NCBI GenBank assembly: GCA_036825195.1
Contig: DAISYQ010000002.1
Span: 37,802 to 101,801 of the forward strand
DNA: 64,000 nt
Direction: 5' to 3'
Origin: Syntrophales bacterium
Lineage (GTDB): Bacteria > Desulfobacterota > Syntrophia > Syntrophales > UBA2210
Every line of letters begins with the position of its first letter. Position 1 is the stretch's first letter. Shown one piece after another: positions 5,786-60,326 of the stretch. A program made the position numbers and the translations under genes. The notes beneath the pieces were generated by a model that saw only the letters and a list, made by a program, of their open reading frames with translations, was not told the origin of the DNA and did no database searches.

Positions 5786-5837
5786 CGGGACGGACTGAAG
5801 ACATGCCATTTCGTATCGTTCGGCGGATATACCGTAC

Positions 5838-6611: not shown

Positions 6612-6687
6612 GGTTCACCTCGGCGACTGTTATTTTCCGTGAAGATATCACACGGATGTGAATTGGGCAAGGGGTTTGCCGCCATGC

Positions 6688-7734: not shown

Positions 7735-7961
7735 GGTGTTTCTTTATGCGGCCTTTTGTACCGGTATATCTATGAACTGCCTGGTGTCGGCAGTTGCAAT
7801 ATCCGTAAAAATAGTTGATAAAAATAACAAAATACATGATATCACTAAGAGCGAAAACTCGCAAGGATTACTCGGAATTCCTCAAGCCGTGTTGCTAAAA
7901 AAAGATTTTTTGTGATAGTAGAATGAGCGGGATCGTGTGGATGGTTAGAAAGGAGTGGCGG

Positions 7962-38951: not shown

Positions 38952-39366
38952 GCATGTTACCTCCTTTCTGATTTATTTTCTGTGACAACTCTCTGCTGTC
39001 ACGTGATACTCGGTATGTAATGGTATGGATAAGGCTTGAAGGTGCTTCGAACTACTATACTAGATATTAACCCCCTATACATCACTATTATAGGAGCCGA
39101 TGTTGTGTCAATAAGATATACCAATTTTTACATAAAAAGGTGGAATAGGAGCACATCATGGAAGATATCTTTGTATTAATTTGAAATCATTGCAATAATA
39201 CAAAAATTAACGGGGGAGATTAACAAATCATAAAAAGATACAAAAAAAGACTTGACAAAGGTGCGGAAGGTAAGGTAGGTGAATAAATAAAGTACCATTT
39301 GGTAATTGCGAAACTACGGGTTGGTGCTGTAGTGGAGCTGTAATTAAAGAAATGGTGCTACTGTCT

Positions 39367-39600
39367 ATGCTTATTATAGAAGGGGAAACATACTTTACGA
39401 TTTCTGATGCGGCAAAGATTTTTGGCGTTTCAACTAAAACTGTCCGCAGCTATATAAATAATGGCATCATTCCTGATCCTCCTGAGGTTCAGTATGGTCT
39501 GCGCACCCTGAAACACTTTCCTCCGGAATATATGGAGAAGGCTAAAAAGAGCCTCGATACGTATCGCCAAAAGAATGTGCCCTTGAAAGATAAGCGGTAG
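39367..39600 (+). CDS. Small MerR/excisionase-like helix-turn-helix protein
   Basis: YFTISDAAKIFGVSTKTVRSYINNGIIP; start may be 39352 or 39367. Confidence 0.8.
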   Translation: MLIIEGETYFTISDAAKIFGVSTKTVRSYINNGIIPDPPEVQYGLRTLKHFPPEYMEKAKKSLDTYRQKNVPLKDKR

Positions 39601-44455: not shown

Positions 44456-47400
44456 ATGAAAGTGAGATATCTCCAAAATAGTTTTTTGGTCGTGCTTGTT
44501 GTGTGCGCCCTAATATTTTTTGTTTCATGCGGAAGCAGCGATGACGATAAAAGCTCATCATCGGTGAGAACGATATCGCTCAGTGCCAGTCCAACCAGCG
44601 TACCCGCAGACGGTTTCAGCACGTCCACTATCACGGCCGCACTCCTGGACAAGGAGGGCAATGCAGTATCCGAGTCGAGGGCTATCTCAGTTACCTTCTC
44701 CACAGACTTTGGCACCTTTACAGAGAACGGAAGCTCCACCTATACGACATATACGGAAAGCGGCGGAAACACGGCAACTGCTACCCTTGCTGCCTCTGAG
44801 GAAGAGGGAACCGCCAGGATTACGGTCAAGGCTGATGATATCAAGAAGGCACTGTATGTATCATTTACACAGTTTGATAATGAAGAAGTAGTTGCCGAGG
44901 AATTCAGCTTGTCGGCCAATTATCTCAATATATCGGGGCTGAGCAGAGTAGGCCTTGAAGACGTTATCACTGCCTGGGTCGGCGATATCTATGGCAATCC
45001 CATACAGGCCAATACATCTATCTCTTTCAAGACGTACGGTACGGGAGGGATGATTTCTCCGAATGTTGTCCCGACTGGTGAGTCGGGAACCGCCGCCAGC
45101 ACGCTGACCACGACATCCGGACCGGCACCCATGCAGGGATTTGTTTCGGTAACGGCCGAAACAGAGGGAGGACCGACAACCCGGGTGACATCCATCGCGG
45201 TAACGCCCTATCCCGACAATCATATCGTCTATGCGGGGACCAACGGCGGGGGAGTCTACAAGTCATCCGACAGTGGGGAGACCTGGGAAAACGTAAGCCG
45301 TTCAAGTGACAACCCGAAACTGGGGCAGAACTGGATGGATCCCTATATCAAAGGGCATAGCGCCATATGCGTCGATCCCGACAACCACAATACAATTTAT
45401 GTAGGCACGGGATATCTGGGGGCGGGGAATCTGTACCGCTCTCTGGATGGCGGAATGAACTGGAACAGTAACAATCTCGAAGAATGGTACGGAGTCTTCA
45501 GCACGAATGCGGCCGTTCTGACCGTGCTGTGCGACGACGGCGGGAGTGACTACGTATGGACGGGAACGGAGGGGTTAGGCATCTTATATGCGGCAAACGG
45601 TGAAAATTTCCAGCCCTCATGTGGAACCGCCACCACGCCCGCACCCGGAGGAGCAAATGTCGGAAATGGGACCGTGTCCGATCCGGTTCTTTCATACTCC
45701 TCGCAGACAGAGACATGGACTGCAACCTGTTTTCTGACCGATGCGAGCGCCACGGTTCCCGTGCTGGATGAAGATGCGGTGGGAAACGGCGCGATGTCGC
45801 CTGTTGAGACATCCGATACCACCGTTTCGGAGAACTGGACGGTGATGTGCAACGGATTTATCGGTGATCCGTCGTATGGTACTGGGGCCGGAACGGTCGA
45901 AGGGATCGTGATACAACACCTGACGGCGGAGACCTGGACCATCCGATGTATTGATGATAATCCCGATGACGACCCGTTGACTGACGATGCCCTGTTCACC
46001 GTCGTCGGCTCCGTTTCCGGGGCCCAGCCGAATGCCACAGAGGGCGAGCTTTATGAATCGGATGTCCTCAAATTTATCATAACTCCGGGTTTTGTTGAGG
46101 ATGATGTTATCACCTTTACCACATCCATCTTCTGGCGTGTGACCGGCACGGTCTCCGGATTACAGGAAGGTACTGCACGGATCAACAGATTGTACCACTC
46201 GGACAACAACGAAATTGCGTTCACAATCTATTCCGGGAGCGTTCCCTTCGAAGCGGGGGATAGCTTCACCTTCACGACGATCGGACCGGCAACCGGCTGG
46301 ACAGTCTATGGAAGTACGTCCGGGATCCAGTCGAACCCCGCATGGAATAACACGGTTTATACATCGGACAACAACGAGGTGAGTTTCATAATCTACGAGG
46401 GATCGACTCCGTTCGCCGACGGCGATACGTTCACTTTCAGCGTTACGGCGAGTGATATCGGTCATGGCTGGACCGTATGGGATATTGTGAAGGTCCCGGG
46501 TACGCATGGAAGTGCCGCCATTCTCTACGCGGCAACGAACGTTGGTGTTTTTAAAAGTATCGACGGCGGCCGGACATGGAATGAGACTTCCAACTTTACC
46601 GGCGATTATATTACGGCCCTATCCCTGCACACGTCATCCACGGGCGGCGCGAACGATGTGATCTATGCCGGGACACTGAATGCGGGAGTCTGGGTAAGCA
46701 CGAACAGCGGAACGGACTGGACACAGTATGCGGGCGGCATGACATCGGGTGTCAGTGCCTCGATTAAGGATCTTTCGGTTGATTCCATGAATGCGAAACT
46801 CTATGCCCTTTGCTATACGGGACCGTCAGATAGTGCAACGGGACATGTGTATTCCCATGCGTTGAACGGCGGTGGATCTATGACAACCGGGACGTGGAAT
46901 TCAGCCAATACCGGTCTTTCCGGAGGAGCTCTCTACGCGGCTGCTCTGGACAGCCCCTCTGATCCCGAGGGGATCTTTGTCGGTGGTGAGGGTATAGCGC
47001 TGTATCGGGCGGAAAGCGGGCTGGATGCGGGGAATCCCATATGGATTGAGAAGATTAATGGTATCGACAACACCATCATGGCGCGCATGCCCGTACTGTT
47101 CACCGGTAACTGTGCGATGACCATCGATCAGACCCTCTATAATAATACGGTGTACTACACCGTGTATATTGAGGATCTGAATGGAAATCCCCCGATCGTG
47201 GGTTCGACATTTACGGTCACCTATAACAACGACACCGAAATAATTGATGTGACCTATCCTCATTGCTATCAACACGAAGGAACCTTCAGAGATCCGGGGA
47301 ATCCCTATTCCAATTATCCCTACCGGTTATCTGTTACCCTCGACCCGACAGAGGACAAAAATGAGGTGGAGTTTGTCTTCACCCCGGCCGACACACTGGA

Positions 47401-47467
47401 TGATGCGGACTATCCCAATGTTCCGGGGTGTTCCGGTGCGGAACAGAGAGTTACTTATCGTTATTAG
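44456..47467 (+). CDS. Large lipoprotein: Big_1-type Ig domains + Asp-box beta-propeller interrupted by ~55 aa beta repeats
   Basis: Lipobox FVSC; SLSASPTSVPADG Ig motif; Asp boxes YKSSDSGETW, YRSLDGGMNW, FKSIDGGRTW, WVSTNSGTDW. Confidence 0.8.
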   Translation: MKVRYLQNSFLVVLVVCALIFFVSCGSSDDDKSSSSVRTISLSASPTSVPADGFSTSTITAALLDKEGNAVSESRAISVTFSTDFGTFTENGSSTYTTYTESGGNTATATLAASEEEGTARITVKADDIKKALYVSFTQFDNEEVVAEEFSLSANYLNISGLSRVGLEDVITAWVGDIYGNPIQANTSISFKTYGTGGMISPNVVPTGESGTAASTLTTTSGPAPMQGFVSVTAETEGGPTTRVTSIAVTPYPDNHIVYAGTNGGGVYKSSDSGETWENVSRSSDNPKLGQNWMDPYIKGHSAICVDPDNHNTIYVGTGYLGAGNLYRSLDGGMNWNSNNLEEWYGVFSTNAAVLTVLCDDGGSDYVWTGTEGLGILYAANGENFQPSCGTATTPAPGGANVGNGTVSDPVLSYSSQTETWTATCFLTDASATVPVLDEDAVGNGAMSPVETSDTTVSENWTVMCNGFIGDPSYGTGAGTVEGIVIQHLTAETWTIRCIDDNPDDDPLTDDALFTVVGSVSGAQPNATEGELYESDVLKFIITPGFVEDDVITFTTSIFWRVTGTVSGLQEGTARINRLYHSDNNEIAFTIYSGSVPFEAGDSFTFTTIGPATGWTVYGSTSGIQSNPAWNNTVYTSDNNEVSFIIYEGSTPFADGDTFTFSVTASDIGHGWTVWDIVKVPGTHGSAAILYAATNVGVFKSIDGGRTWNETSNFTGDYITALSLHTSSTGGANDVIYAGTLNAGVWVSTNSGTDWTQYAGGMTSGVSASIKDLSVDSMNAKLYALCYTGPSDSATGHVYSHALNGGGSMTTGTWNSANTGLSGGALYAAALDSPSDPEGIFVGGEGIALYRAESGLDAGNPIWIEKINGIDNTIMARMPVLFTGNCAMTIDQTLYNNTVYYTVYIEDLNGNPPIVGSTFTVTYNNDTEIIDVTYPHCYQHEGTFRDPGNPYSNYPYRLSVTLDPTEDKNEVEFVFTPADTLDDADYPNVPGCSGAEQRVTYRY

Positions 47468-47469
47468 AT

Positions 47470-49044
47470 ATGGACTATTTCAGGATATTAAATCTTGTCA
47501 AAGAACCTTTTTCCAACTCTCCCGAACCGGAGTTCTTTTACCAGTCCGAGCAGCATGTGGAGTGTCTCCAGAAGCTGGAACTCGCCGTGCGCTTGCGGCG
47601 CGGGCTGAATGTCGTCATCGGAGATGTGGGGACGGGTAAGACCACGCTGTGCAGGCAGATGATCCGCAGGCTTGCCGCCGATAAGAACGTAGAAACATAC
47701 CTTATGATAGACCCGTATTTCAGCAAACCGATGGAGTTTCTCCATGCGGTGAGTGAACTGCTGGGTATTGATGACAGTAAGCCCGAAATGACGGAATGGC
47801 AGGTCAAGGAGGAGATCAAAAACCACCTCTATGCGAAAGGGGTAGGAGAACAAAAGATCCTTGTTCTGATCATAGACGAGGGGCAGAAGATTCCGGATTT
47901 CTGTCTTGAAATGTTGAGAGAATTTCTCAACTATGAGACGAATGAATACAAGCTGCTGCAGATCGTTATATTTGCCCAGAAGGAGTTTTATCAGGTGCTT
48001 GAAGGGCATCCGGGTTTCGCCGATCGTATCAACCTCTCCTACGATTTTTCACCCATGAACTTTGCCGATACGCGGGCGATGATACGGTACCGCCTGGATA
48101 TCGCCAGTGGGGGGAAAAAGGAGGTTTACTTTACCTTTCCCGCTCTGTGGGCGATCTACCGAATCACGAAAGGATATCCGCGGAAGATCGTCAGGCTGTG
48201 CCACCAGATTATTCTCGCCCTTATTGTTCAAAACCGTACAAAAGCTAATTGGTCACTGGCCCGTTTCTGTGCGCACGGAGAAGAAAAATCCGGTGGAACA
48301 AGGCGAGTCGTATTGGCCGCAACCTTCGCTTGTTTGATCGCTTTAATCTTCTTTGGATTCAAGTATGATCATCTATTTGTTTCAGTGAATCACTCTCCTT
48401 CGGTTGAGGCGGTGTCGATGTCCGCGCCCGTTGTAAAAGACCTGGCGGAAAACGCGAAACAGGTGATTCCGGTTCAGTCTGCGGCGATTGCCGCTCTTCC
48501 CGAGAAGCCTCCGGCTGAAGTTTCATACATTACCGAAAAAGCGCCGGTGATTGAGGAAAAATATCCCCCGTTGCTGGGGCGGCTGGGAATACGGAAAAAT
48601 GAAACGGTCTCGGGCATTGTGAGAAGGGTGTACGGTGTGTGTGATCCGGAGCGGCTTGCAGTAATAACCGATGCCAACCCGCACATCAAGGATTTGAACA
48701 GGGTTGTGCCGGGGGAGGTGATTAATCTTCCGGCGATTCCCTCCGGGTTTTACCCCGCGCCGGAATGGATCTGCTGGGTTCAGGTGGCGCAGAAAGGAAG
48801 TCTCGAGGATATTTATGCATTGTGCACAACATATCCCGGCACGTTGCCCCCGATTCAGATATTTCCCTGCTGGAACGGTCGTGAGGGGTTGACTTTTACC
48901 GCTATCATGGAAAAGGGCTTCACCGATGAAGAGTCGGCGCAGAGAGCCATTGACGAACTGCCCCGGCTGATCTCTTCAGGCGCGAAGGTCATTACAAAGT
49001 GGGACGAAGATACGGTTTTCTTTTCCACCGTGGCGTCTCGCTGA
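47470..49044 (+). CDS. ExeA/MshM-type AAA ATPase with TM, LysM and SPOR-like C-terminus
   Basis: EPFSNSPEP, GDVGTGKTT, LIIDEGQ, GYPRKI; LysM-like NPHIKDLNRVVPGEVINLP. Confidence 0.85.
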   Translation: MDYFRILNLVKEPFSNSPEPEFFYQSEQHVECLQKLELAVRLRRGLNVVIGDVGTGKTTLCRQMIRRLAADKNVETYLMIDPYFSKPMEFLHAVSELLGIDDSKPEMTEWQVKEEIKNHLYAKGVGEQKILVLIIDEGQKIPDFCLEMLREFLNYETNEYKLLQIVIFAQKEFYQVLEGHPGFADRINLSYDFSPMNFADTRAMIRYRLDIASGGKKEVYFTFPALWAIYRITKGYPRKIVRLCHQIILALIVQNRTKANWSLARFCAHGEEKSGGTRRVVLAATFACLIALIFFGFKYDHLFVSVNHSPSVEAVSMSAPVVKDLAENAKQVIPVQSAAIAALPEKPPAEVSYITEKAPVIEEKYPPLLGRLGIRKNETVSGIVRRVYGVCDPERLAVITDANPHIKDLNRVVPGEVINLPAIPSGFYPAPEWICWVQVAQKGSLEDIYALCTTYPGTLPPIQIFPCWNGREGLTFTAIMEKGFTDEESAQRAIDELPRLISSGAKVITKWDEDTVFFSTVASR

Positions 49045-49076
49045 TATCTGTTTTAACAAAAGGAAAGGGTCGTACG

Positions 49077-50786
49077 TTGGAGGAGACACGAAAAAAATTA
49101 GGCGAAATGCTCATGGATGCCGGCCTGTTGACGGAAGAACAGTTAAATCAGGCGCTGGTCGGCCAGAGAAAGACCGGTCTGAAACTCGGGCAGTATCTTG
49201 TCCAGGAGGGCTGGTTCAGGGAAGAGCAGATTATAAGCCAGATCAGCCAACAGCTGAACATTGAACGATATATCCCCGGAAATTATCCGATAGATCAGTC
49301 TCTGGCCCACCTCATTCCCTTCGATATGGCTCAAAAGTATCAGATAGCTCCCATCAGAAAAAGGTTGCATCTCCTCACCCTGGCCATGGCCGATCCAATG
49401 GATATCGGCGCCATCGATTACACCGAGATGCTCACAAACATGGAGGTTATGCCTGTAATCTGCTCTGAGAAGGAGATAAATCAACTGATCACCCTGACCT
49501 ACGGAACACAGGCGGGGGGATTGCAGCAGGTACTGAAGGGCATAGAGGAGGTGGAAACAGAAGAAGAAACGACGGTTCAGGCGGAAACGGATGTCCGCGT
49601 CAGTTCTCTTCAGGGTATGGCCGAGGAGGCCCCCGTTATCCGTATCGTAAATTCCATAATCGCGCAGGCTGTTCGTGAAGGAGCGAGCGATGTACATATC
49701 AGTCCCGAAGCGGACAAGGCCCAATTGCGATTTCGCATTGACGGAAAACTTCGTGAAGTTCCATCGCCTCCGAAATCACTCTTCCTTCCCATCGTATCGA
49801 GGGTAAAGATCCTGTCCAGTATGGATATCGCCGTATCGAGAATTCCTCAGGACGGCCGATTTACAGTCAAGATGGACAATAAGGAGATCAATATCAGGGC
49901 ATCCGTGCTTCCTACCATCTATGGGGAGAACGTGGTAATGCGTCTCCTTGATATGAGTGCCGGGGTTTATACCCTCAAGCAGCTCGGAATGTCTCATGAC
50001 GACCGGGAAAAAATAGAGGCTGCCATCATCAAGCCGTACGGAATGATACTCAGTACGGGACCGACGGGAAGCGGAAAAAGCACGAGTCTGTACGCGATCC
50101 TGCGGGAACTCAATAAACCGGATATCAATATCATTACCCTGGAAGACCCCGTAGAGTACCGGGTGGAACATATACGCCAGGTCCAGTTGAACCGCAAGGC
50201 AGGTATGACCTTTGCCAGCGGTCTCAGATCGATCCTCCGTCAGGACCCCGATGTCATGCTGGTGGGTGAGATCAGAGACGGCGAAACGGCAGGTCTCGCG
50301 GTACAGGCAGCCCTGACAGGCCACAGGGTTTTAAGCACCCTTCACACAAATGATGCGGCGGGTGCCATAACACGGCTTACCGAGATGGGAGTGGAACAGT
50401 TTCTTATATCTTCCGTCCTTCTGGTTTCGTTCGCGCAGCGGCTTATGAGAACGGTGTGCCCCTACTGTAAAGAGCCGTACACGCCTCCCTTGGATGCCCT
50501 AAGGGCATGGGAACTTGACACGGTGGAGGGTGCCAATTTTCAGCGGGGTAGAGGGTGCCCCCAGTGCATGAACACCGGTTATAAAGGGCGGACCGGTATC
50601 TTTGAAGTCCTGCAGATAGACGAATCAATCCAGGAGATGGTTGTCAGGGGAATGACGGCGCAGGAGATTACGCACAAGGCGAAAAGGGCCGGAAGACTCC
50701 GCACCCTCAAGGAAGACGCCAAGGATAAAGTAATCCAGGGCATAACAACACTTGAAGAAGCCGCATCGACCGTGATGCTGGCATAA
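49077..50786 (+). CDS. pilB: MshE/PilB pilus extension ATPase with N-terminal MshEN domain
   Basis: KLGEMLMDAGLLTEEQLNQALVGQ..KLGQYLVQEG; GPTGSGKST; LVGEIRD; CPYC/CPQC; TTG start 49077. Confidence 0.9.
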   Translation: MEETRKKLGEMLMDAGLLTEEQLNQALVGQRKTGLKLGQYLVQEGWFREEQIISQISQQLNIERYIPGNYPIDQSLAHLIPFDMAQKYQIAPIRKRLHLLTLAMADPMDIGAIDYTEMLTNMEVMPVICSEKEINQLITLTYGTQAGGLQQVLKGIEEVETEEETTVQAETDVRVSSLQGMAEEAPVIRIVNSIIAQAVREGASDVHISPEADKAQLRFRIDGKLREVPSPPKSLFLPIVSRVKILSSMDIAVSRIPQDGRFTVKMDNKEINIRASVLPTIYGENVVMRLLDMSAGVYTLKQLGMSHDDREKIEAAIIKPYGMILSTGPTGSGKSTSLYAILRELNKPDINIITLEDPVEYRVEHIRQVQLNRKAGMTFASGLRSILRQDPDVMLVGEIRDGETAGLAVQAALTGHRVLSTLHTNDAAGAITRLTEMGVEQFLISSVLLVSFAQRLMRTVCPYCKEPYTPPLDALRAWELDTVEGANFQRGRGCPQCMNTGYKGRTGIFEVLQIDESIQEMVVRGMTAQEITHKAKRAGRLRTLKEDAKDKVIQGITTLEEAASTVMLA

Positions 50787-50805: not shown

Positions 50806-52023
50806 ATGCCAACCTTTTCATACAGGGCCATCAATCAGAGCGGCGGCTCCGTTTCAGGTGTCCTCGAGGCAGATTCGGTTGAGGCGGCACAGGTCCGGTT
50901 GAGCGAGCAGGGATTTATCCCGTCCTCAGTGACGGAGGAACGTACTGCATCCGGCGGGTTAATGGGTAAGATACAGGCAGCACTGACGCCCGTCAAAACG
51001 GAAGAGTTGATACTCTTTACGAAACAACTCAAGACCATGCTCGTTGCCGGATTGCCGATACTGAAGGTGCTTGAAGTACTCGAACATCAGACCGAAAATC
51101 CAAAGCTGAAAAGCGCTGTAGCCTCCATGGCCGTTGATATAAAGGAGGGTACTTCCCTGTATGAGGTATTCGGGAAACATAAAGACATATTCTCTCCCCT
51201 CTATATCAGTATGATCAGGGCGGGTGAAACGAGTGGTACACTCCCGTCAGTTCTTGATCGCCTGGTCTATATACTGGATCACGAACATGGTGTGAGGTCG
51301 GATATCAAGGCGGCCATGCAATATCCCATCCTTGTCGTGATCGCCCTTGGCATAGCATTTTTTGTGCTCCTCACTTTCGTTATCCCCAAATTCGTCAATA
51401 TTTTTAACAAGTCAGGCCTAGAACTTCCGCTGCCCACGGCAATCTGCTTGTATATGTACCGGTTTCTGCATGATTACTGGCTCATTCTGTTGGGTGGTGT
51501 TCTTGTTGCTTTTATGGTGCTGCGGTACTGGTTCAAGACCCAACCAGGACGATATGTAAAAGACGCCTTTCTTTTACGAGTACCCCTCATTGGACCTCTC
51601 TTTGTCAAGGCTGCCATGTCCCGTTTCGCGAGCATCTTTTCTATCCTGCAGGCAAGTGGAGTTACCGTCCTGAGTGCCCTCGATATCCTCTCCGGTACCA
51701 TCGGCAACGCCGCCATCAGCAGGGAATTTTCCCGGTTGAAAGAAAAGATAGAAGGAGGGAGAGGGATATCCGGGCCCCTGAGATCGGCGAAATACTTTAC
51801 TCCCATGGTAGTGGACATGATCGCCGTGGGTGAAGAATCAGGTCAGCTTGAAGAGATGCTTCAGGTTGTTTCCATGCATTATGACGACGAAGTGAAATAT
51901 GCCGTCAAGAGGTTATCCGATGCTGTCGGTCCGCTGTTGATCGTTTCTCTCGCGGCAGTAGTCGGCTTTTTCGCCATGGCCATATTCCTCCCCATGTGGG
52001 ATCTCACCAAAATGGTCAAATAG
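50806..52023 (+). CDS. pilC: PilC/MshG/GspF platform protein
   Basis: [39 protein letters not shown]. Confidence 0.92.
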
Positions 52024-52043: not shown

Positions 52044-53375
52044 ATGCCCCAAACAGAAAAAACTCGCAAAAGGCTTTTCGCGGACGCTTCCCGTTACAGG
52101 ATAAGTCTCTCCATCATCGTCCCCGTTATCTTTTCAGGGATGTCGATCCTCTCATTCATGATCGCCCCGCATACGAGCGGTTCGTACCGTCTTTTAAACG
52201 GCGCCGGGATAGCTATTCTCACTTTCCTGTGCGGTTACCTGGTGGTCCGGCTTATACTCAGGCCGATGAAACAGTTTGTGAAGGAGACGGAGCAGTGGCC
52301 GTCGCTCCGGGATTCTGTTGCCGAAAAGAAGCAGAAGGCCGATGACGACATCCAGCATTACGGACAGGTCCTGCGGCAGGTAACCGACATACTGGGAAAG
52401 GTTGAATCGGAGAAGCTCTTTCCGGAGATGATCGGTCAAAGCACGGTCATACGCGGGGTGTTCAGCCAGATACTGAAGGTCGCCCCAACCGATACAACGG
52501 TCCTTATCATGGGCGAGACCGGCACAGGGAAGGAGTTAGCCGCAACAAGTATTTACCGACACAGCCTTCGAGCGGATCAGCCTTTTGTAACGATCAATTG
52601 CGTTACTATCCCCGCTAATCTTCTTGAAAGTGAGCTGTTTGGGTATGAGAAAGGCGCTTTCACGGGTGCGACCGCGCGGAAGAAGGGCAAGTTTGAACTG
52701 GCCGAAGGCGGAACAATCTTTCTGGACGAGATCGGAGATATGCCCCTTGAGACACAGGCAAAGCTGCTGCGGGTACTTCAGGAAAAGAGCTTCGAACGAC
52801 TCGGCGGCAACCGGCCCATACAGGTGGATGTTCGCTTTATCGCCGCCACAAATAAGGACCTGTCTAAGATGGTCAAGGAGGGAAGCTTCAGGGAAGACCT
52901 GTATTACCGCCTCAATGTATTCCCCATAGTTCTGCCCCCGCTCAGAGAACGGGAAGACATCACGGCGCTGGCCGATTATTTTCTGAAAGGGGCATCCAAG
53001 CCGGTCAAGATCTCACCGGATGCCATGGAACGTCTCAAGGAGTATTCATGGCCCGGTAATGTGAGGGAACTGCAGAGCGCCATAGAGCGAGCCGCCCTGA
53101 TCGCCGAATCGGGCGTTATTGAAACGGAAAACCTCCCGGCAACTATACTGGACAGTGGCGACATGAAGCCTTCCGCCGAATTAAAGGAAGGGGTATCGAT
53201 CGATGATCAGTTACAACGGCTTGAAAAGAGGATGATAATCAGAGCCCTCCTGAGGGCCGACGGTAAACAGATAAAAGCGGCACAGCTTCTCGGAATCAAA
53301 GAGCGCAGTCTCTGGCACCGGATACGGAAATATGAAATAGATGTACCATCGCTGAAAAAACAACAAAATATGTAG
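52044..53375 (+). CDS. Membrane-anchored sigma-54-dependent transcriptional activator (2 TM + AAA+ + Fis-type HTH, no receiver domain)
   Basis: TMs [21 protein letters not shown] and [15 protein letters not shown]; [31 protein letters not shown]. Confidence 0.88.
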
Positions 53376-53645
53376 GAAATTCCCCAATATTTGGAGGAAT
53401 AAACACAGAGCAGTAGGTTTGTCAAGGGATTACAGCACGTTCCGTTTTGTACGCATAAAGTAGTAATTTGAAGAGAGATAATGTTAATTGCCTGTCAAAG
53501 AAAAAGTCAAGTCACTGTTTCCAATTGTTCGAGATAGACTAGTTATTGCAGCTAGTTATGCAATATCATGGAGATAGTCGAATCTCTTTAAAGAGTGTGC
53601 GTTACAGGGAGGAAAGGAAATGGTCGTATAAAAATTAAACAAATA

Positions 53646-53661
53646 TGGCATGAAACATGCT
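53646..53661 (+). promoter_or_regulatory. Sigma-54 (-24/-12) promoter of the major pilin gene
   Basis: TGGCATGAAACATGCT: GG at 53647-53648 and GC at 53659-53660, canonical spacing, 82 nt upstream of ATG. Confidence 0.85.
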
Positions 53662-53742
53662 TATTAGATTGACACAACTTGTTGGATATATTAGAAGTAC
53701 GGGAAAAACTTAAAAAACACAACGGAAAGGGAGGAATACAAA

Positions 53743-54138
53743 ATGAACAAGAAGTTGAGGAATCAAAAGGGTTTTACGTTGATCGAGATCATTGCTGTTC
53801 TGATCATCCTGGGTATCTTGGCGGCGGTAGCTGTTCCTAAATATATCGATTTGCAGGCTGATGCAAAGATAAAGGCAGCATCCGGACAGGTCGCAGAGGT
53901 CAAGGGGACGTTGCAGTCGGGATGGGCCAAGGCGCTCCTGGCGGCTAACGGGGGAGCTGTCACAACTGCTCAAGTAATAGCCAGCGCTAGCTTGGTGGTT
54001 GGTAGTCAAACTCTCGGAACGGCACCTGATGTTTGGACCGTAACCTTGGGAGGGACATCTCCAAATATCACAATTGCTGTGTCACAGCGTGGCTCTGACA
54101 CGGGTTACGCGGCATCAGGTACGTGGGTTCTACCCTGA
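53743..54138 (+). CDS. pilA: Major type IV pilin (MshA/PilA-like)
   Basis: Prepilin cleavage KG|FTLIE, hydrophobic helix, AVPKY; own promoter, GGAGG RBS and terminator. Confidence 0.85.
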   Translation: MNKKLRNQKGFTLIEIIAVLIILGILAAVAVPKYIDLQADAKIKAASGQVAEVKGTLQSGWAKALLAANGGAVTTAQVIASASLVVGSQTLGTAPDVWTVTLGGTSPNITIAVSQRGSDTGYAASGTWVLP

Positions 54139-54170: not shown

Positions 54171-54209
54171 ATAGGAGGACACTTTTTGTGGTGTCCTCCT
54201 ATTTTTTTA
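54171..54209 (+). terminator. Intrinsic terminator after major pilin
   Basis: Perfect 12 bp stem ATAGGAGGACAC/GTGTCCTCCTAT followed by a T run. Confidence 0.9.
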
Positions 54210-56294
54210 TGGCATCTGTTTTTGCAGAGAGCAGCGGATGACCTGTAACAGGTGGTGTGGATCAGGGGTATACACCTTGATCGATACATCAGTTACATAT
54301 GAGTTGATGAACTCATTCCACCCCTTTTTTCTTTTCAGGAACATAAGCCTGCCAACTGTTTCATTGAGATCGTCTATGTTTCCCAACGAGTAATAAATCT
54401 CCGCCAAAGCAAGGTTCACTTCTATATCGTGGATGTCATAGGACAGGCACCGTTCCATGTAGGATTGTGCCGCATGATAGTCATCTTGAGATAAATAAGC
54501 GGCACCTATGATTTTATATACCTTTATTATATCTGGCGGATTAATCCGAAGAACTGCCCGGCACTCCTCGATGGCCTCTTGCGCCTTCCCTTGTTTGAGT
54601 AGCGAAAGCCCCAGTACGCTGTGAAGTTCATCGTTATCGGGCCATCGTTCGACGGTATTCCTGAGTGTATTTTCTGCTTCTCCTGGCGAACCCATGCCAA
54701 TGAGGCTCAGTGCAAGGCCCTTCCATGCCGCCGGATTCCCATCCCAGATCGCGAGGGCCTGACGATAAAGATCGGCCGCGACGGAAAAATCCTTGTATCT
54801 GTTTAATCGTATCGTGGCAAGATTATGCCATGTATCGAAATGATTCGATTTATTGAAGTGCATCCCTTTATTTGATGCTTCAATAAATGCCGCCTCAGCT
54901 TTGTCCAGAAGACCCAAGGCAGCATAACTTTTTCCCAAGTGGGTGTATGGCCGAGCCAGTCCGGGGCTTTTTTTTGCGTTATCAGACCATAGAAGAACCG
55001 GATATTCAAACAGGGAATTCCGCATGAAGACGGTGTGACCCTGTGCCGCAAGAAGGAAGGTGAAAACGGCAACCATCGTGAACTGGATCGTTTTTTTATA
55101 AGAAAAGTAATTAGTTACATGCAGCATTAATATAACGATCGGAATAAAGAAAAGCATGGAAGGGATATAGTTCCTGTGTTCGTATATCAATTCAAGCGGG
55201 ATAATTGAACCTTCAATAATGTGGTTCACAAAGAAGAAGAGAACGCAAAAAGAGATAAGTGGTCTTTTTCGGGCGATGCATACGGCAATACCGATGCAGA
55301 TAATTATAAAGATGATGGCCGGAAAGGTGCTCCACGGGTTGAACAATGCGGTTGATATCTCAACATCATGAAGGAGTGTGAGGCGTGATTCCAGCGGATA
55401 TAGAAGGAGCGTTATGTAAAAGATGACGATCCTCGGTTCTGTCAGGAGTCTCTCGGTAAGTGAAAAAGGTCTTTCTTTATACCCGTCCATAATGGATGAC
55501 AAATCGGTGTAGAGAAGGCCGATGATAACAACGAGGAGTAGTACAGGAACGATAATCTTGATGTTTTTATTGATATTATCACGTGTTATGCCCTGAATAA
55601 GCAGCAAGTCGTAAAGCCATGCACATACCGGCAGCATAACGATATTCTCTTTGGTGAGAAAACCGGATGCGGCGGAGATGACACACAGTAAGCCGAAAAG
55701 AATATATTTCCACAATCGATCTGCGGTTCTCACCTTGAGATAGAAATACATGGCCATGATATAGAAGAGCCCTCCCATGCTGGCCATCCGCTGGACGATG
55801 TATGTTACGGCAGTAACCTGCAATGGACTGGTAGCCCAAAAGAATGTGGCCATAAGAGCTATAGCGTACGATGAGGATCCATATTTATCCCGAAGCAACG
55901 GAAGTTTGAGGGTATTGAATATAAAGAGAAACAGAAAGACGGATGACAGATAATGGATAATAAAGTTGACAAGGTGATACCCGAAAACATTCAACTTGTC
56001 GAAGTAGTAATTCAGGGCGAAGCTGAGATATGCCAGGGGGCGGGAGATATAGTCGCTTCCTGGAGCATAAAAGGTTTTTTTGATTTCTGACCAGTCAAGT
56101 GACTTCAGAAATATATGCCTGTTTTCAACGATATTCGTATAATCGTCATAATGCCATTCCCCGTGAAAGCTATTTGAGTAGATGACAATCAGGAATACAA
56201 AGAGGGCGATATATGCAAACGCGTAGTTCCTGCCATCGGGAAAACGCCACCTGATATTCAGATCAAATCCGTTCTCTTTCGTTATCATCGTCAC
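54207..56294 (-). CDS. TMTC-like GT-C glycosyltransferase with C-terminal TPRs
   Basis: First-loop YDDYTNIVEN acidic pair, RPLAYLSFALNY, KENIVMLP, YEHRNYIPS; multiple TMs, then TPRs. Confidence 0.8.
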   Translation of the reverse strand: MTMITKENGFDLNIRWRFPDGRNYAFAYIALFVFLIVIYSNSFHGEWHYDDYTNIVENRHIFLKSLDWSEIKKTFYAPGSDYISRPLAYLSFALNYYFDKLNVFGYHLVNFIIHYLSSVFLFLFIFNTLKLPLLRDKYGSSSYAIALMATFFWATSPLQVTAVTYIVQRMASMGGLFYIMAMYFYLKVRTADRLWKYILFGLLCVISAASGFLTKENIVMLPVCAWLYDLLLIQGITRDNINKNIKIIVPVLLLVVIIGLLYTDLSSIMDGYKERPFSLTERLLTEPRIVIFYITLLLYPLESRLTLLHDVEISTALFNPWSTFPAIIFIIICIGIAVCIARKRPLISFCVLFFFVNHIIEGSIIPLELIYEHRNYIPSMLFFIPIVILMLHVTNYFSYKKTIQFTMVAVFTFLLAAQGHTVFMRNSLFEYPVLLWSDNAKKSPGLARPYTHLGKSYAALGLLDKAEAAFIEASNKGMHFNKSNHFDTWHNLATIRLNRYKDFSVAADLYRQALAIWDGNPAAWKGLALSLIGMGSPGEAENTLRNTVERWPDNDELHSVLGLSLLKQGKAQEAIEECRAVLRINPPDIIKVYKIIGAAYLSQDDYHAAQSYMERCLSYDIHDIEVNLALAEIYYSLGNIDDLNETVGRLMFLKRKKGWNEFINSYVTDVSIKVYTPDPHHLLQVIRCSLQKQMP

Positions 56295-57225
56295 TCCTTC
56301 CTGTATTGTTCGTCAGCTCCCGGGTAAGGATAAAGCTGAAGACCGGTCCCATAGTAAAGATCGGGATCAGGGAAGCTACCCTGATGAGCAGGGACGCCAT
56401 CAGGCCGAGGCTTGTTCCGATGCCGAACATTCCTGACGTCAGGCTGATAATTGCCTCCTGAATTCCGAAATTACTGGGCGTCAGATTCAAGAGGATGGAA
56501 AAGATTGAAAGGAGGCTTATGAGGAAAACCGCTCCGAAAGAGACAGGAAAATCAGCTAACGCCGTAAATGCTATCCAGAAAGAAAGCCCGTTTAATAAAA
56601 TACCTATCAAGGAATATATCACCAGTTTCAAGATCAGAATCCTGTCCGCCTTTATAAGAACCCATCCATCAATTATATTATTGATAACTACAGTGAGGCG
56701 GTTAATCCGTAAAAACCTTACCGGAGGGAGGATAATCACAATTGAAATTATTAATACAACCGCAATTAAAAATGAAATCACCTGTCGATAAAACGTAAAA
56801 TCTTCTCCGAACATTATAACGGTAAGAACACCAACGGCACCGATAGTCCCAAAGTATATCAGGTAGTTTGCCGCAAGAAGTGACGCAAACTGTGTGTAAG
56901 GGAAAGCGTGACGATGTTTCAAATAGGCGGCACGTGCGATCATCCCACCTGAAAAGGGGGACAGGTAATTCCCCATTGTTGTCACGATGGAGAGGCCGAA
57001 CCATTCCTTTGGTTTCAGAAATGTTCCGAACTTGGAGGCAAACTCACGGAGTAACAGCCCATTGATTACCTGAAACAGGATTCTGATTATTATGAGAAAG
57101 ATGATATTCAATAAGCTGACATTTCTAAGAAATCTGAGAGAATAGGGCTGATAATAAATATATGTTGATATTGCCGCAACAACAAGTATTACAACAGCAA
57201 CAGACCATGCGCGACTCTGAATCAT
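56263..57225 (-). CDS. UPF0104/lysylphosphatidylglycerol-synthase TM-domain protein (putative flippase)
   Basis: Polytopic membrane protein; GNYLSPFSGGMIARAAYL and LTPSNFGIQEA motifs. Confidence 0.75.
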   Translation of the reverse strand: MIQSRAWSVAVVILVVAAISTYIYYQPYSLRFLRNVSLLNIIFLIIIRILFQVINGLLLREFASKFGTFLKPKEWFGLSIVTTMGNYLSPFSGGMIARAAYLKHRHAFPYTQFASLLAANYLIYFGTIGAVGVLTVIMFGEDFTFYRQVISFLIAVVLIISIVIILPPVRFLRINRLTVVINNIIDGWVLIKADRILILKLVIYSLIGILLNGLSFWIAFTALADFPVSFGAVFLISLLSIFSILLNLTPSNFGIQEAIISLTSGMFGIGTSLGLMASLLIRVASLIPIFTMGPVFSFILTRELTNNTGRSDDDNERERI

Positions 57226-57379
57226 AGGTAGCCCTTTATACTATAATTATAACGATCTTCTATCCTATACCTTTATAGAATAATATGTTCGATTTCTGCA
57301 TTGTTGAATAACTATCTATGATAGAGGCTATCATGATAAAAATATCAAGACTTACCACAATAACCTGTAAGGAGTGTTT

Positions 57380-58219
57380 TTATTTTGTACAAACACCCAA
57401 CAAATCAATATTATCTTCAACATCATTTTGGGTAATATGGAAATCTTTCAATGTATATTGTTGTAAAAAATTATTTTTATTTTCATTGTTACGGTTTCGG
57501 GCAACAATCTTTTTCAGAAAATCGATAACTTGGGGTTTAAACTGTTCCGGTATTAAATTTCTGACATATAATGGATCAAGGGAATTTATCCTTTTAATCT
57601 GTTCTACTCTTTCTCTCTCAATTTTTTGTATTTCATCATTTCCACGAATTCCCCAAATTGTCACATCGGGAAATGTACCAATTAAGATATCTTTTAATAA
57701 ACTTGCAGAATATTCTCTTACATGAAACCGGTTCCAGGGACGTTGCCCTCGTTTTAATCGATATTCTCTGTTTGGGGTAGTAAGGATAAAGAGAGAGGAT
57801 TGTTTCAATACTCTATGGATCTCTGAAATATACTTTTTATCGTTTTGAATGTGTTCAATTACCTGAAAAGAGATGACTGCATCAAAGGTGTTGGTATCGT
57901 ATGGAATATTAATACCATTGTAGGTTCTGAAAATACAGTTTTCTGAGGCATACTTACTCAAAGCGTGATTAATCGTCTTTATGTCTATATCCAACCCGAT
58001 AATCTTTTTAACATGTTGAGATAACAAATGAGAACCATATCCTTCACCACATCCTACTTCCAATACAAGACTGTCCTTTGGCACCATACTCTTTGCAAAT
58101 TCATAGGCGAACAAATGCCGTAAGTAAAGAAGATAGTCCACACAAGTCTCAATATTTTCGGGGATTATCCGTTCTCCTGTTTTTTTAATACCTTTTCCCA
58201 CATTTTCCTTCGGGCGCAT
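57380..58219 (-). CDS. Class I SAM-dependent methyltransferase of glycan-cluster type
   Basis: TGERIIP, RHLFAYEF, VLEVGCGEGYG, FDAVISFQVIEH, TTPN; very AT-rich. Confidence 0.88.
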   Translation of the reverse strand: MRPKENVGKGIKKTGERIIPENIETCVDYLLYLRHLFAYEFAKSMVPKDSLVLEVGCGEGYGSHLLSQHVKKIIGLDIDIKTINHALSKYASENCIFRTYNGINIPYDTNTFDAVISFQVIEHIQNDKKYISEIHRVLKQSSLFILTTPNREYRLKRGQRPWNRFHVREYSASLLKDILIGTFPDVTIWGIRGNDEIQKIERERVEQIKRINSLDPLYVRNLIPEQFKPQVIDFLKKIVARNRNNENKNNFLQQYTLKDFHITQNDVEDNIDLLGVCTK

Positions 58220-58242
58220 AAAGTGATACTGACACTCCCTAT

Positions 58243-59373
58243 TTATTTTTCACCAGTTGTTTCATATTCGTCGGATAAATCGTATTTTCTGAATAGAGCA
58301 GAAAGGATTCCTTCTATACAAGCAATCGAAAAAATCTTTCTGTACAGGTCCAGTCCCTTATTTCCTATAACAGGCAATTTATCCTGATTCTCAAAACACC
58401 AGAGGATTGCTCCTGCAAGATCCCTTTCGTTTCCCTGCGAAACCAACAGGCAATTATCCTTATCTATGAAACCATAATCATGCTCGATCTTACCCACTAT
58501 TACGGTTTTGCCCATAGCTAAAGATTGAAAGGTTTTTCCGGTGACAACACGACACGCCTGACCAGTGTTACCAAAGGGGCCTCCCAGGCAAACATCCGCT
58601 TGGTGTATCACATCTGGAAGTTGTTCAAAAGGAACCCATTTTTTATGGATAATATTATTGAGACCTAATCTTTTCTTCATTGCGTTAAAATTTCTAAGGG
58701 CTTTACCGTCTCCTCCGATAATGGTAAAGCATATTGGCTTATCTTGTAATAAATATGCAACTGTCAGAATAATGTTTATGCCGTGAAGCGGAAGGAATGA
58801 ACCGTAAAAGAGGACATTTAAAAGATCCTTCTTTTGGACTTCATTACCTGAAGGAATCATTTTAAACAAATCCTCGTCAGTTCCTACATGAACCGCATAG
58901 ATTTTTTTTTCCTCCTTTTTGAACAGGTTTGAGAAAAACTTCCTATGAATAACCGTATCAGTCAGTACTATGTCTGAGTATTTCAGAATTGATTTTTCAT
59001 AGTAATATATTAATCTTTCGATAAATCTACCCTTTTTGAACAGTTTCTTTTCACTAATCAAACTGTCGTATGGAGACATCATATGATCAAGAATGAGCGG
59101 TTTCCCGATGGTCAATATTCGCACAATCCAGAATATTTCATAACCACGGAATCCTAGAATATAATAATCGGGTTTCTTTGTGCTTCTGATTGCAAACAAC
59201 CTGGATATTGTTTGTATATAGCGAAAGATTCCTTTTGTAGTATTGACAGCTTCAAACAGTACTACATTGTCCATTCTTTTCAGTGCGCAGGTGAGAGTTT
59301 TTGTTCTGACATAATTGGGACACCGATATGATAAGATATAACATACCTTTGTTTTTTTGTTTTTATTACGCAT
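58243..59373 (-). CDS. GT4-family glycosyltransferase
   Basis: FYGSFLPLHG, ADVCLGGPFG, KTFQSLAMGK; AT-rich. Confidence 0.85.
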   Translation of the reverse strand: MRNKNKKTKVCYILSYRCPNYVRTKTLTCALKRMDNVVLFEAVNTTKGIFRYIQTISRLFAIRSTKKPDYYILGFRGYEIFWIVRILTIGKPLILDHMMSPYDSLISEKKLFKKGRFIERLIYYYEKSILKYSDIVLTDTVIHRKFFSNLFKKEEKKIYAVHVGTDEDLFKMIPSGNEVQKKDLLNVLFYGSFLPLHGINIILTVAYLLQDKPICFTIIGGDGKALRNFNAMKKRLGLNNIIHKKWVPFEQLPDVIHQADVCLGGPFGNTGQACRVVTGKTFQSLAMGKTVIVGKIEHDYGFIDKDNCLLVSQGNERDLAGAILWCFENQDKLPVIGNKGLDLYRKIFSIACIEGILSALFRKYDLSDEYETTGEK

Positions 59374-59402
59374 CCTCTTTCGCCATGATTATGACAGGTT
59401 TG

Positions 59403-60326
59403 TCATAACCTGCTTTTATGTTTTGGAACTTCCGTTTGATTATCCTGGTATAAATGGAAAGATTCTACTCTGTCGAATCTCAACTGTGCCACCTGTTCCG
59501 ATACAAGCCCCACCATGAATACCACAATGGCTACGGTCATCAACATGGCGGAAGTGGGGCCGTACCGTCCTCCCATGAAGAATATCTTGAAAAGGCCCCA
59601 GGCCAATCCCGCGAAAAACATGATAGCGCTGACGGGAAGGAAGACCCGCATAGGTGAAAAAAGGGTTGCTATCTTGATGATAATGAGAAGGAATCGCGAG
59701 CCGTCCCGTACCAGCCTTATCTTGCTCTTGCCCACGCGGCGGGTTGTGGTTATCGGAACATAGGCAAGACTGTATCCGGAGCGCACCACCGCCAGGGTAA
59801 TGGTTGTCGGATAGGAGAAGGTATTGGGAAGGAGGGATAAAAACTGGCGGGCGATTTCCCGTTTTATCGCCCTGAACCCCGATGTCAGGTCTTCGATCCT
59901 GCGTTTGCAGATGTACGTGGCAAACCGGTTGTAGATCCTGTTTGCCACGATTCTGTGAAAAGAAGCCTCAGAATCGCTCGTTCGCGCTCCGACAGCCATG
60001 TCGTAAGCATCCATTTTTTCCAACAGGCGAGGGATATCTTCGGGTGCATGCTGGCCGTCTCCATCGAGCGTAACCAGAATGTTACCCTTCGCGTTTCTGA
60101 TTCCGGTTTTGACCGCGGCACCGTTACCGATGTTGTATGGATGAGATATTACGTGTGCACCAGCCTTCGACGCTTCCGCTGCTGTTGCATCGTCTGACCC
60201 GTCATCAACCACGATGATCTCATAATCACGATTCATTGCATCCATGACGCGGCGCACTCTCTGTACGACGTCGGAGATCACCTTTTCTTCACGATATACG
60301 GGGATAATGAGACTGATATCCGGCAT
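59403..60326 (-). CDS. GT2 polyprenol-phosphate glycosyltransferase (DPM1/GtrB-like) with two C-terminal TMs
   Basis: SLIIPVY, VVDDGSDD, GNGAAVKTG, LDGDGQH, DLTSGFRA. Confidence 0.88.
   Translation of the reverse strand: MPDISLIIPVYREEKVISDVVQRVRRVMDAMNRDYEIIVVDDGSDDATAAEASKAGAHVISHPYNIGNGAAVKTGIRNAKGNILVTLDGDGQHAPEDIPRLLEKMDAYDMAVGARTSDSEASFHRIVANRIYNRFATYICKRRIEDLTSGFRAIKREIARQFLSLLPNTFSYPTTITLAVVRSGYSLAYVPITTTRRVGKSKIRLVRDGSRFLLIIIKIATLFSPMRVFLPVSAIMFFAGLAWGLFKIFFMGGRYGPTSAMLMTVAIVVFMVGLVSEQVAQLRFDRVESFHLYQDNQTEVPKHKSRL

Follow-up and report, generated by a model that had tools for sequence, protein, structure and literature searches.

A candidate membrane-integral sigma-54 activator linked to a type IV pilus gene cluster and its pilin in Syntrophales

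A 64-kb stretch of DNA from a Syntrophales bacterium (GenBank assembly GCA_036825195.1, contig DAISYQ010000002.1, positions 37,802 to 101,801), which we call the window and whose first letter is position 1, contains a gene for a sigma-54 enhancer-binding protein (EBP) between the pilus-machine gene pilC and a pilin gene, and the protein appears to carry its own transmembrane hairpin. We propose that it is a one-component, inner-membrane-integral EBP, made together with the pilus machine, that activates the neighbouring pilin gene on input from the machinery and/or from unassembled pilin, a proposal that we consider evenly poised between right and wrong. EBPs are described as soluble proteins that receive their input via a receiver, PAS, GAF, V4R or similar cytoplasmic domain, or via a partner protein, and the pilin gene pilA of Pseudomonas aeruginosa, and also of Myxococcus, Geobacter, Xanthomonas and Lysobacter, is controlled by the PilS/PilR pair.

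Results

A receiver-less activator with a predicted membrane hairpin

The EBP gene and the parts of its product, numbered in amino acids (aa), are listed below. They were delineated from the open reading frame (ORF), Pfam, hydropathy, an AlphaFold2 (AF2) model, Foldseek and phmmer.

52044 (ATG)-53375, + strand: EBP gene, product predicted to be membrane-anchored, 443 aa
52101-52169, + strand: predicted first transmembrane segment (TM1), aa 20-42, Kyte-Doolittle 19-residue window, AF2 helix 22-40
52170-52196, + strand: predicted periplasmic loop, aa 43-51, PHTSGSYRL, ~9 residues
52197-52259, + strand: predicted second transmembrane segment (TM2), aa 52-72, Kyte-Doolittle, AF2 helix 49-83, unbroken into the next module
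52260-52427, + strand: HAMP-like helix-connector-helix, putative transducer, aa 73-128, AF2 helices 49-83, 86-94 and 102-125
52428-52928, + strand: sigma-54 interaction AAA+ domain, aa 129-295, Pfam PF00158 and Foldseek
52653-52670, + strand: GAFTGA motif, aa 204-209
53211-53333, + strand: Fis-type helix-turn-helix (HTH) DNA-binding domain HTH_8, aa 390-430, Pfam PF02954

Pfam recognised a Sigma54_activat domain (E-value 3.6e-74), an AAA_lid_14 domain at aa 303-376 and the HTH_8 domain (E-value 1.5e-9). Walker A reads GETGTGKE and Walker B FLDEIG, and these motifs, GAFTGA and the arginine fingers, including position 283 and R341, are invariant among 82 relatives, while the HTH recognition helix RSLWHR is almost invariant across the family. 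In the AF2 model, a monomer built from an 82-sequence alignment with a mean predicted local distance difference test score of 81, the AAA+ domain gave FleQ, FlrC, NtrC1 and ZraR as best Foldseek matches, with a TM-score of 0.9 on the target and a root mean square deviation of 1.4-1.9 Å. Judged by these features, the window protein is a genuine member of the EBP family, and it is predicted to open sigma-54 promoters. An initial annotation of this DNA, made from the letters alone, had described it as a receiver-less activator with an intact GAFTGA motif, which the domain analysis bears out.

The N-terminal region is of a different nature. Residues 1-128 contain no Pfam domain, and when the N-terminal 133 residues and 34 family members were scanned with Pfam and NCBIfam, only chance matches to membrane families were obtained. 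Both hydropathy and the AF2 model support the transmembrane hairpin that the initial annotation had named as the only input of the activator, with a loop of 9 aa instead of the ~10 aa given there. Basic residues flank the membrane segments, in the N-tail (KTRKR..R.R) and at the exit (RLILRPMK), and the whole fits a transmembrane hairpin that has both ends in the cytoplasm (N-in/C-in), exposes next to nothing to the periplasm and is the sole N-terminal input. What had initially been taken for a short helical linker is actually a conserved 55-residue helix-connector-helix module, composed of a P74-x3-F78 helix, an LPxF connector and a DDIxH[FY]xxV[FL]xxVTxxLxKVE helix that extends into the AAA+ domain.

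In this second juxtamembrane helix, the hydrophobic residues I103, Y106, L110, V113, L117 and V120 are in heptad spacing. The phmmer alignments with NtrC1 (1ny5, 4l4u) and NtrX start at EBP residue 109, and those with FleQ at residue 102, thus inside this helix, where NtrC1, NtrX and FleQ carry the linker between receiver and AAA+ domain. In NtrC1 and DctD, this linker holds the ATPase as an inactive dimer. The heptad helix, together with alignments that start inside it, suggests an off-state dimer that would be released for ring assembly.

The helix-connector-helix that AF2 predicts right after TM2 is of HAMP size. The family profile could be aligned in register, proline on proline, with the TM2 and Pfam-annotated HAMP domain of the histidine kinase P0221, and DELGELALTFNEM was paired with deiehfsqvlkev. 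In this comparison, hhalign gave 70% probability and an E-value of 3.9e-5 over 52 columns. We call the module HAMP-like and treat its membership of the HAMP family as putative.

The hallmarks of PilR are missing from the EBP: it has no receiver (no Response_reg match), and the 64-kb window has no kinase gene. Pfam scans of all large window ORFs found neither a kinase nor a receiver domain, phmmer searches of every six-frame segment of the 64 kb, with HisKA/HATPase and REC as queries, gave only E-values above 0.5, and HisKA and HATPase_c were absent from the ten homologue loci described below. The initial annotation had noted the lack of receiver and kinase for the locus, and the same can now be said of the entire window.

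The EBP start was assigned to the ATG at 52044, since the homologues share a beginning at the MPQTEK/MSQTDK position, and an in-frame GTG at 51996 was rejected for the same reason. The public gene call, P0001 (52140-53375), is a 411-aa protein that starts at the internal Met33 (MSILSF...), so that TM1 is dropped and the hairpin is hidden from automated annotation.

Gene order around the EBP gene

The genes that immediately flank the EBP gene are the following.

48999-50786, + strand: pilB/mshE-type extension ATPase, Pfam T2SSE E-value 2.5e-134, MshEN E-value 2.9e-15
50806-52023, + strand: pilC/gspF-type inner-membrane platform protein, two Pfam T2SSF domains
53743-54138, + strand: type IV (pre)pilin, 131 aa, Pfam N_methyl E-value 3.7e-9, TIGR02532
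54169-54204, + strand: intrinsic-terminator-like hairpin, 15-bp stem with 6 GC pairs, followed by TTTTTT

In the window, 20 nt separate the pilC stop from the EBP start. The N-terminal MshEN of PilB is of the type that binds cyclic di-GMP (c-di-GMP), with an NCBIfam c-di-GMP_motif domain at aa 33-85. The prepilin has the leader MNKKLRNQKG, a mature N-terminus FTLIEI and a Glu at +5, and the terminator-like hairpin behind it is predicted to close the pilin as a monocistronic unit.

We compared the window with ten independent homologue loci, in which the EBP is 44-86% identical (loci are designated by L numbers). The arrangement that the initial annotation had seen in this one locus recurred in most of them. 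The order PilB(MshEN)-PilC-EBP was kept in 11/11 loci, with 2-100 nt between pilC and the EBP gene, and PilB stood ahead of pilC-EBP in 10/10 of the homologue loci whose sequence reaches that far. In nine of the 11 loci, the EBP gene adjoins an orthologous pilin that carries a -24/-12 element of its own, the pilin being convergent in L091. The pilus machine (PilC/PilB) is thus, to go by gene order and fusions, at least equal to pilin as a candidate source of the signal, because the constant neighbour is pilC/pilB (11 against nine loci) and the natural fusion partner, described below, is PilB.

The pilin promoter

The initial annotation had placed the activator gene directly upstream of a -24/-12 pilin promoter, and this is indeed where it lies.

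53646-53661, + strand: predicted sigma-54 -24/-12 promoter, TGGCATGAAACATGCT, 81 nt between its end and the pilin ATG

YGGCAY-N6-TGCW is matched exactly at a single place in the window, by TGGCATGAAACATGCT. As 45 of 100 shuffled sequences also contained one exact match, a single match in 64 kb is unremarkable alone. What makes it significant is its place, on the right strand within the 370-nt gap ahead of the pilin gene, and the presence of a counterpart in every orthologous locus with an adjacent pilin (9/9). Seven of these loci (the window, L001, L004, L006, L007, L008 and L009) share the sequence (T/C)GGCATGrAAnnTGCt, and the elements of L003 and L091 are the variants TGGCACACTGTATGCG and TGGTATAAAGTATGCT, respectively. 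A scan for sigma-70 promoters on the pilin strand between 53300 and 54300 revealed no promoter-like site.

Just past the -24/-12 element, the pilin leader at 53667-53702 (ATTGACACAACTTGTTGGATATATTAGAAGTACG) is nearly identical in L009, although the flanking intergenic DNA has diverged. By eye, a TTGACA-N17-TAGAAG sequence can be seen in the leader downstream of the -24/-12 element, which was rejected by the criteria of the sigma-70 scan. No Rfam family matched in the window or the pilin leader.

Candidate enhancer dyads

Two dyads at the end of the EBP gene are candidate upstream activating sequences (UAS).

53361-53375: candidate enhancer (UAS) dyad 1, CAACAAAATATGTAG, overlapping the TAG stop of the EBP gene and the four codons before it
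53382-53396: candidate enhancer dyad 2, CCCCAATATTTGGAG, centre 21 bp from that of dyad 1, i.e. two helical turns

The dyads were found by scanning the upstream regions with 12-mer seeds under tolerance of mismatches; for the four loci whose regions are shortest, the 3' end of the EBP gene was scanned as well. The motif obtained had 10-12 total mismatches, compared to 18-20 in shuffled controls, and corresponds to a 15-bp dyad, CTACA-N5(A/T)-TGTAG. Exact inverted repeats common to the upstream regions were not found. Both dyads lie upstream of the range, 53400-53640, that the initial annotation had marked for footprinting.

Dyad 1 is the only exact CWACA-W5-TGTAG match in the window, and dyads occur at matching positions in eight loci. 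The 15-mer of dyad 1 is identical at the EBP stop in L001, L003, L006 and L007, and L009 and L008 have one- or three-base variants. The pair is found at the equivalent place in L001, L006, L007, L008 and L009, whereas L003 has dyad 1 and L004 a shifted version. At the position of dyad 2, L001, L006 and L008 have C[TA]ACATTATTTGGAG, whereas L007 and L009 have sequences related to it. The synonymous sites and the stop codon under dyad 1 are kept in proteins that are only 57-76% identical, and the same codon choice and stop despite this divergence indicate selection on the DNA and not on the protein.

In L091, where the pilin is convergent, the dyads are located away from the EBP stop, at -101 and -69 of the -24/-12 element of this pilin, and in L011 a perfect palindrome, CTACAAAATTTGTAG, is present at 8315-8329, 3 kb beyond the EBP gene. 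Because the dyads travel with the pilin promoter, even where they are unlinked from the EBP stop, they are likely to be the enhancer. Matches to CWACA-W5-TGKAG were confined to family loci when 94 loci were compared, and ~670 kb of non-family sequence contained no site with nine or more of the ten half-site matches. A conserved binding site is also to be expected because of the nearly invariant RSLWHR recognition helix, and we infer that the EBP would bind the candidate dyads.

A conserved block that follows dyad 2 (TGGAGTATTGTATGCG in L001 and L008) was considered as a second -24/-12 element and rejected, as the GC at -12 is lost in the window, L006 and L007. Locus L008 alone has an extra dyad half, CAAATAATGTAG, at ~9611-9622, directly downstream of its pilin -24/-12 element.

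Conservation of the membrane module

Relatives that span the whole EBP including its N-terminus form more than 120 clusters with 52-86% identity. The named members come from metagenome bins of Syntrophales, Desulfatiglandales, 'Deltaproteobacteria' and Thermodesulfobacteriota, and all are annotated merely as generic sigma-54 regulators. When 1.84 billion representative proteins were searched with a profile built from the N-terminal 134 positions, only 124 matched, mostly contig-end fragments of the EBP family. The non-fragment matches were EBPs of 430-480 aa and three proteins of other architecture, so the N-terminal membrane module is, to judge from this search, rare and essentially confined to this EBP lineage. 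A search of genome contigs with the whole EBP returned mostly generic GAF- and REC-containing EBPs, matched via their AAA+ domain, and one true member (L011, Syntrophaceae), and is not a census.

The conservation of the module was expressed as mean column entropy.

TM1: 1.30 bits
Periplasmic loop: 2.87 bits
TM2: 1.86 bits
Juxtamembrane helix 1: 1.54 bits
Juxtamembrane helix 2: 1.43 bits
Lid domain, for comparison: 1.56 bits

The family motif of TM1 is S21-L-[YS]-I-[IL]-[IV]-P27-x-I29-F30-[ST]-G32, in which P27 never varies and the conservation of S21, I29, F30 and G32 is 93% or higher (82 sequences). P74, F78, L117, F126 and P127 are invariant in the juxtamembrane module, and the periplasmic loop is unconserved and variable in length, being roughly 10 to 20 aa longer in some members. 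That TM1 is as conserved as folded domains, and that the module is reused in front of PilB and a kinase (see below), argues for a sensor rather than a passive anchor.

Reuse of the module in front of PilB and a kinase

The three proteins of other architecture share the EBP N-terminus with E-values of 1e-33 to 1e-40, and are encoded at the following positions.

L010 8001-10868 and L094 1092-3953: PilB fusions P0130 and P0138, respectively
L093 3214-5442: kinase fusion P0124, 742 aa

P0130 and P0138, both ~950 aa, consist of the hairpin, the HAMP-like module, a sigma-54-type AAA+ domain with lid, MshEN and a full PilB ATPase, and have no HTH. P0130 retains GSFTGA, and the DE of its Walker B is changed to HQ. 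This type of protein forms ~40 clusters, most of which bear a Syntrophales label, with contigs as long as 90 kb, and the fusions occur as stand-alone genes. In P0124, the same N-terminus is followed by an AAA+ domain without GAFTGA and then by HisKA, HATPase_c and a receiver, again with no HTH. The membrane module was thus kept while the output shifted from transcription to the pilus motor or a kinase, which suggests that it is an input device and ties it to PilB.

Other features of the window

The remaining genes of the pilus cluster precede pilB.

From 39693, + strand: PilM/PilN fusion
From 41525, + strand: PilO-like protein
From 42190, + strand: GspB-like protein
From 42676, + strand: PilQ secretin
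44456-47467, + strand: lipoprotein, 1003 aa, Big_1/invasin and sortilin/BNR-like repeats
47428-49044, + strand: ExeA/MshM-like AAA ATPase

The lipoprotein gene is inserted between the genes for the secretin and the ExeA/MshM-like ATPase, an arrangement seen in the window and L007 (399-3431) only. Just upstream of pilM, a small ORF (39349-39600, + strand) contains a stretch that, judged by eye, is HTH-like (ISDAAKIFGVSTKTVRSYINNG). A second PilB-type ATPase is encoded at 10617-12929 (- strand) as a stand-alone paralogue with a GAF domain ahead of MshEN and T2SSE, an extension that parallels the fusions of membrane hairpin, AAA+, MshEN and PilB found elsewhere. The surroundings of the pilus cluster are dense in genes for cyclic-nucleotide signalling, whose products are a membrane protein that combines two GAF domains with a class III cyclase domain (13388-16021, + strand), a GAF-PAS-HD-GYP-type (HD_5) protein (31677-33965, - strand) and a 731-aa protein with a weak PilZ match (33962-36157, - strand).

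Convergent with the pilin gene, a block at 54207-60326 (- strand) encodes a 695-aa membrane/TPR protein, an LPG_synthase_TM-like protein, a methyltransferase and glycosyltransferases. Such a block also follows the pilin in L001, L004, L006 and L008, and it may belong to the same surface-structure system, e.g. for pilin glycosylation. In L011, the Syntrophaceae metagenome-assembled genome fen_1170, the region 5300-9296 contains a scaffold gap, PIN- and HicAB-like modules and ~45-nt repeats (8371 and 9031) between the EBP gene and the palindrome mentioned above.

Discussion

A working model can be drawn from these data. The EBP would be the last product of the pilus-machine operon (pilM...pilB-pilC-EBP), with the separate monocistronic pilin gene as its target. 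It would sit in the membrane as a dimer, in which the HAMP-like bundle and the coiled coil of the second helix keep the AAA+ domains as an inactive pair, resembling the hold of the receiver-AAA+ linker in NtrC1 and DctD. A signal from PilC/PilB and/or unassembled pilin, received in the membrane or at its cytoplasmic face, would alter the HAMP-like module, after which the released AAA+ domains would form an active ring on the two dyads. This ring would reach the sigma-54 holoenzyme, ~260-285 bp away, via DNA looping at the membrane and open the promoter. As a result, pilin synthesis would be matched to the activity of the machine without a kinase or phosphotransfer.

Sensing of the pilin pool, which the initial annotation had favoured, is plausible by analogy with PilS. 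According to a statement in PMC6058289, which cites Kilmury and Burrows 2016, Pseudomonas PilS contacts PilA via its transmembrane segments. When the fusions are considered as well, a more specific version of the model presents itself, which we put forward tentatively, as possible but less than probable. The unit of hairpin, HAMP-like module and AAA+ domain would then be a dedicated reader of the working state of the pilus machine that docks on PilC and/or PilB. In the EBPs, the reading would be passed on to sigma-54-dependent pilin transcription by a ring that assembles on DNA while embedded in the membrane, and in the fusions a pseudo-ATPase would gate the PilB motor or the kinase. If true, this would be the first membrane-integral EBP, and one sensor module would serve three different outputs.

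Several observations weigh against the proposed model. To our knowledge, there is no described precedent among EBPs for a membrane protein that acts on DNA as a hexameric ring. The HAMP-like assignment is challenged by the Pfam HAMP model, PF00672, which matched none of 34 members even at an E-value of 10 or less. The N-terminal profile found only designed or GCN4 coiled coils among PDB sequences, with E-values above 0.1, and hhalign against the Af1503 HAMP, whose sequence had been checked against 2l7h and 4gn0, gave a probability of 0.15%, i.e. no similarity. The enhancer-to-promoter distance ranges from ~60 to ~430 bp between loci, and the dyads could be bound by another protein. Finally, L092 has no pilin nearby, and in L011 an adjacent pilin is missing, the EBP gene being followed by a scaffold gap and by inserted toxin-antitoxin modules.

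The hairpin might also be a passive tether, so that a constitutively active EBP is only localised by it, and the pilin level is set by the dose of EBP made with the pilM-pilC operon and by c-di-GMP acting on the MshEN of PilB. Tethering might place pilin transcription and translation near the membrane and the machine, or limit the mobility of the EBP. The position of the EBP gene as the last of the machine operon, 2-100 nt after pilC, is compatible with dosage control, as is the c-di-GMP-type MshEN of PilB. The periplasmic loop is short and unconserved, and EBPs that lack a receiver, PspF and HrpR/S among them, are active constitutively as long as no partner inhibits them. However, an invariant proline, a 12-residue TM1 motif and a 55-residue module have been kept although the region is only 35-45% identical, and the module is also kept before PilB and the kinase, after loss of the DNA-binding domain and of either GAFTGA or Walker B. 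We consider a mere tether rather unlikely.

Two transmembrane segments with a minimal loop are also the layout of intramembrane-sensing histidine kinases, and the EBP may accordingly sense a general membrane or envelope cue, such as lipid packing, membrane potential or a small hydrophobic ligand, with pilin merely as output. However, the family is found in only one type of pilus cluster, after pilC in each of the loci compared, and its other fusion partners include PilB, which ties the module to the pilus system, and we deem such a cue unlikely.

It is very unlikely, in our estimation, that the pilin is driven by PilS/PilR or by a different EBP encoded elsewhere in the genome, and that the present EBP controls something else or acts on the pilus machine as an ATPase. 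The 64-kb window is part of a genome, derived relatives without HTH exist that are fused to PilB, and Thermodesulfobacteriota can have dozens of EBPs (PMC12316311). In the window protein, on the other hand, GAFTGA, Walker A/B and the HTH are intact, the recognition helix is nearly invariant, and the dyad occurs in family loci only, where it goes along with the pilin promoter.

Least probable of all is regulated release, in which a protease would cut a dormant membrane precursor after or within TM2 to free a soluble, constitutive EBP: this mode, known from membrane-tethered anti-sigma factors and some eukaryotic factors, would avoid a membrane-bound hexamer on DNA and yield a PspF-like product, but the loci contain no conserved protease gene, the conserved helices keep their heptad register right up to the AAA+ domain that they enter, a better fit to conformational signalling, and the PilB and kinase fusions keep the module without any need of release.

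How, then, would a membrane-integral, signal-responsive EBP relate to known systems? It would share with PilS/PilR the output, an NtrC-type EBP with a Fis-type HTH that acts on a sigma-54 -24/-12 promoter of the major pilin. It differs in lacking receiver, kinase and phosphotransfer, in having two membrane helices within the activator itself compared to six in PilS, and in the location of its gene after pilC and not in a pilSR pair. This suggests a system resembling PilS/PilR collapsed into one protein. With NtrC1, DctD and NtrC4 it has in common that a heptad-spaced helix leads directly into the AAA+ domain, but the module upstream is a hairpin with a HAMP-like helix pair and not a phosphorylatable receiver, and the dimer and its release are putative. 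As in PspA-PspF and BtdS-RedR2, the activity of a receiver-less EBP would be tied to the inner membrane. In those systems, however, a soluble EBP is held by a separate protein, RedR2 for instance being sequestered at the membrane by the four-helix membrane protein BtdS (PMC10084136), whereas the window EBP has its membrane segment covalently attached.

The combination of an inner-membrane span and DNA binding in one polypeptide, which obliges the promoter DNA to come to the membrane, is shared with ToxR, TcpP and CadC. These proteins begin with a winged helix of the OmpR type, cross the membrane with a single helix, carry their sensor domain in the periplasm and work with the sigma-70 holoenzyme, whereas the window EBP has a C-terminal Fis-type HTH, a predicted ATPase ring, a 9-residue periplasmic loop and sigma-54 as its predicted partner. 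Finally, the window protein resembles the intramembrane-sensing kinases of the BceS/LiaS type, and the input modules of transmembrane segments and HAMP in kinases and chemoreceptors, in its two transmembrane segments with a minimal loop and in the predicted succession of a helix that starts with proline, a connector and a DE[IL]xx[FL] helix, but the output of the window protein is an AAA+ transcription activator, and its module is not recognised by the Pfam HAMP model. A survey of Clostridiales found the sensor domains of EBPs to be mostly without membrane regions (PMC6615313). The initial annotation had called the circuit apparently undescribed, in keeping with which our full-text searches of the literature found no report of a membrane-integral EBP.

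Our interest is tempered by the fact that everything beyond the sequence is inference and that the organisms are uncultured. Public annotation has concealed the feature, by a truncated gene call in the window and by generic names for the relatives. An EBP family with a membrane hairpin as its only input raises the question of how an anchored ring ATPase reaches sigma-54 by looping, and the PilB and kinase fusions suggest that transcriptional control and the pilus motor are physically connected. The dyad pair and the promoter form a ready-made reporter, and the family would represent a minimal, kinase-free counterpart of PilS/PilR autoregulation that is tractable in Escherichia coli with four or five genes.

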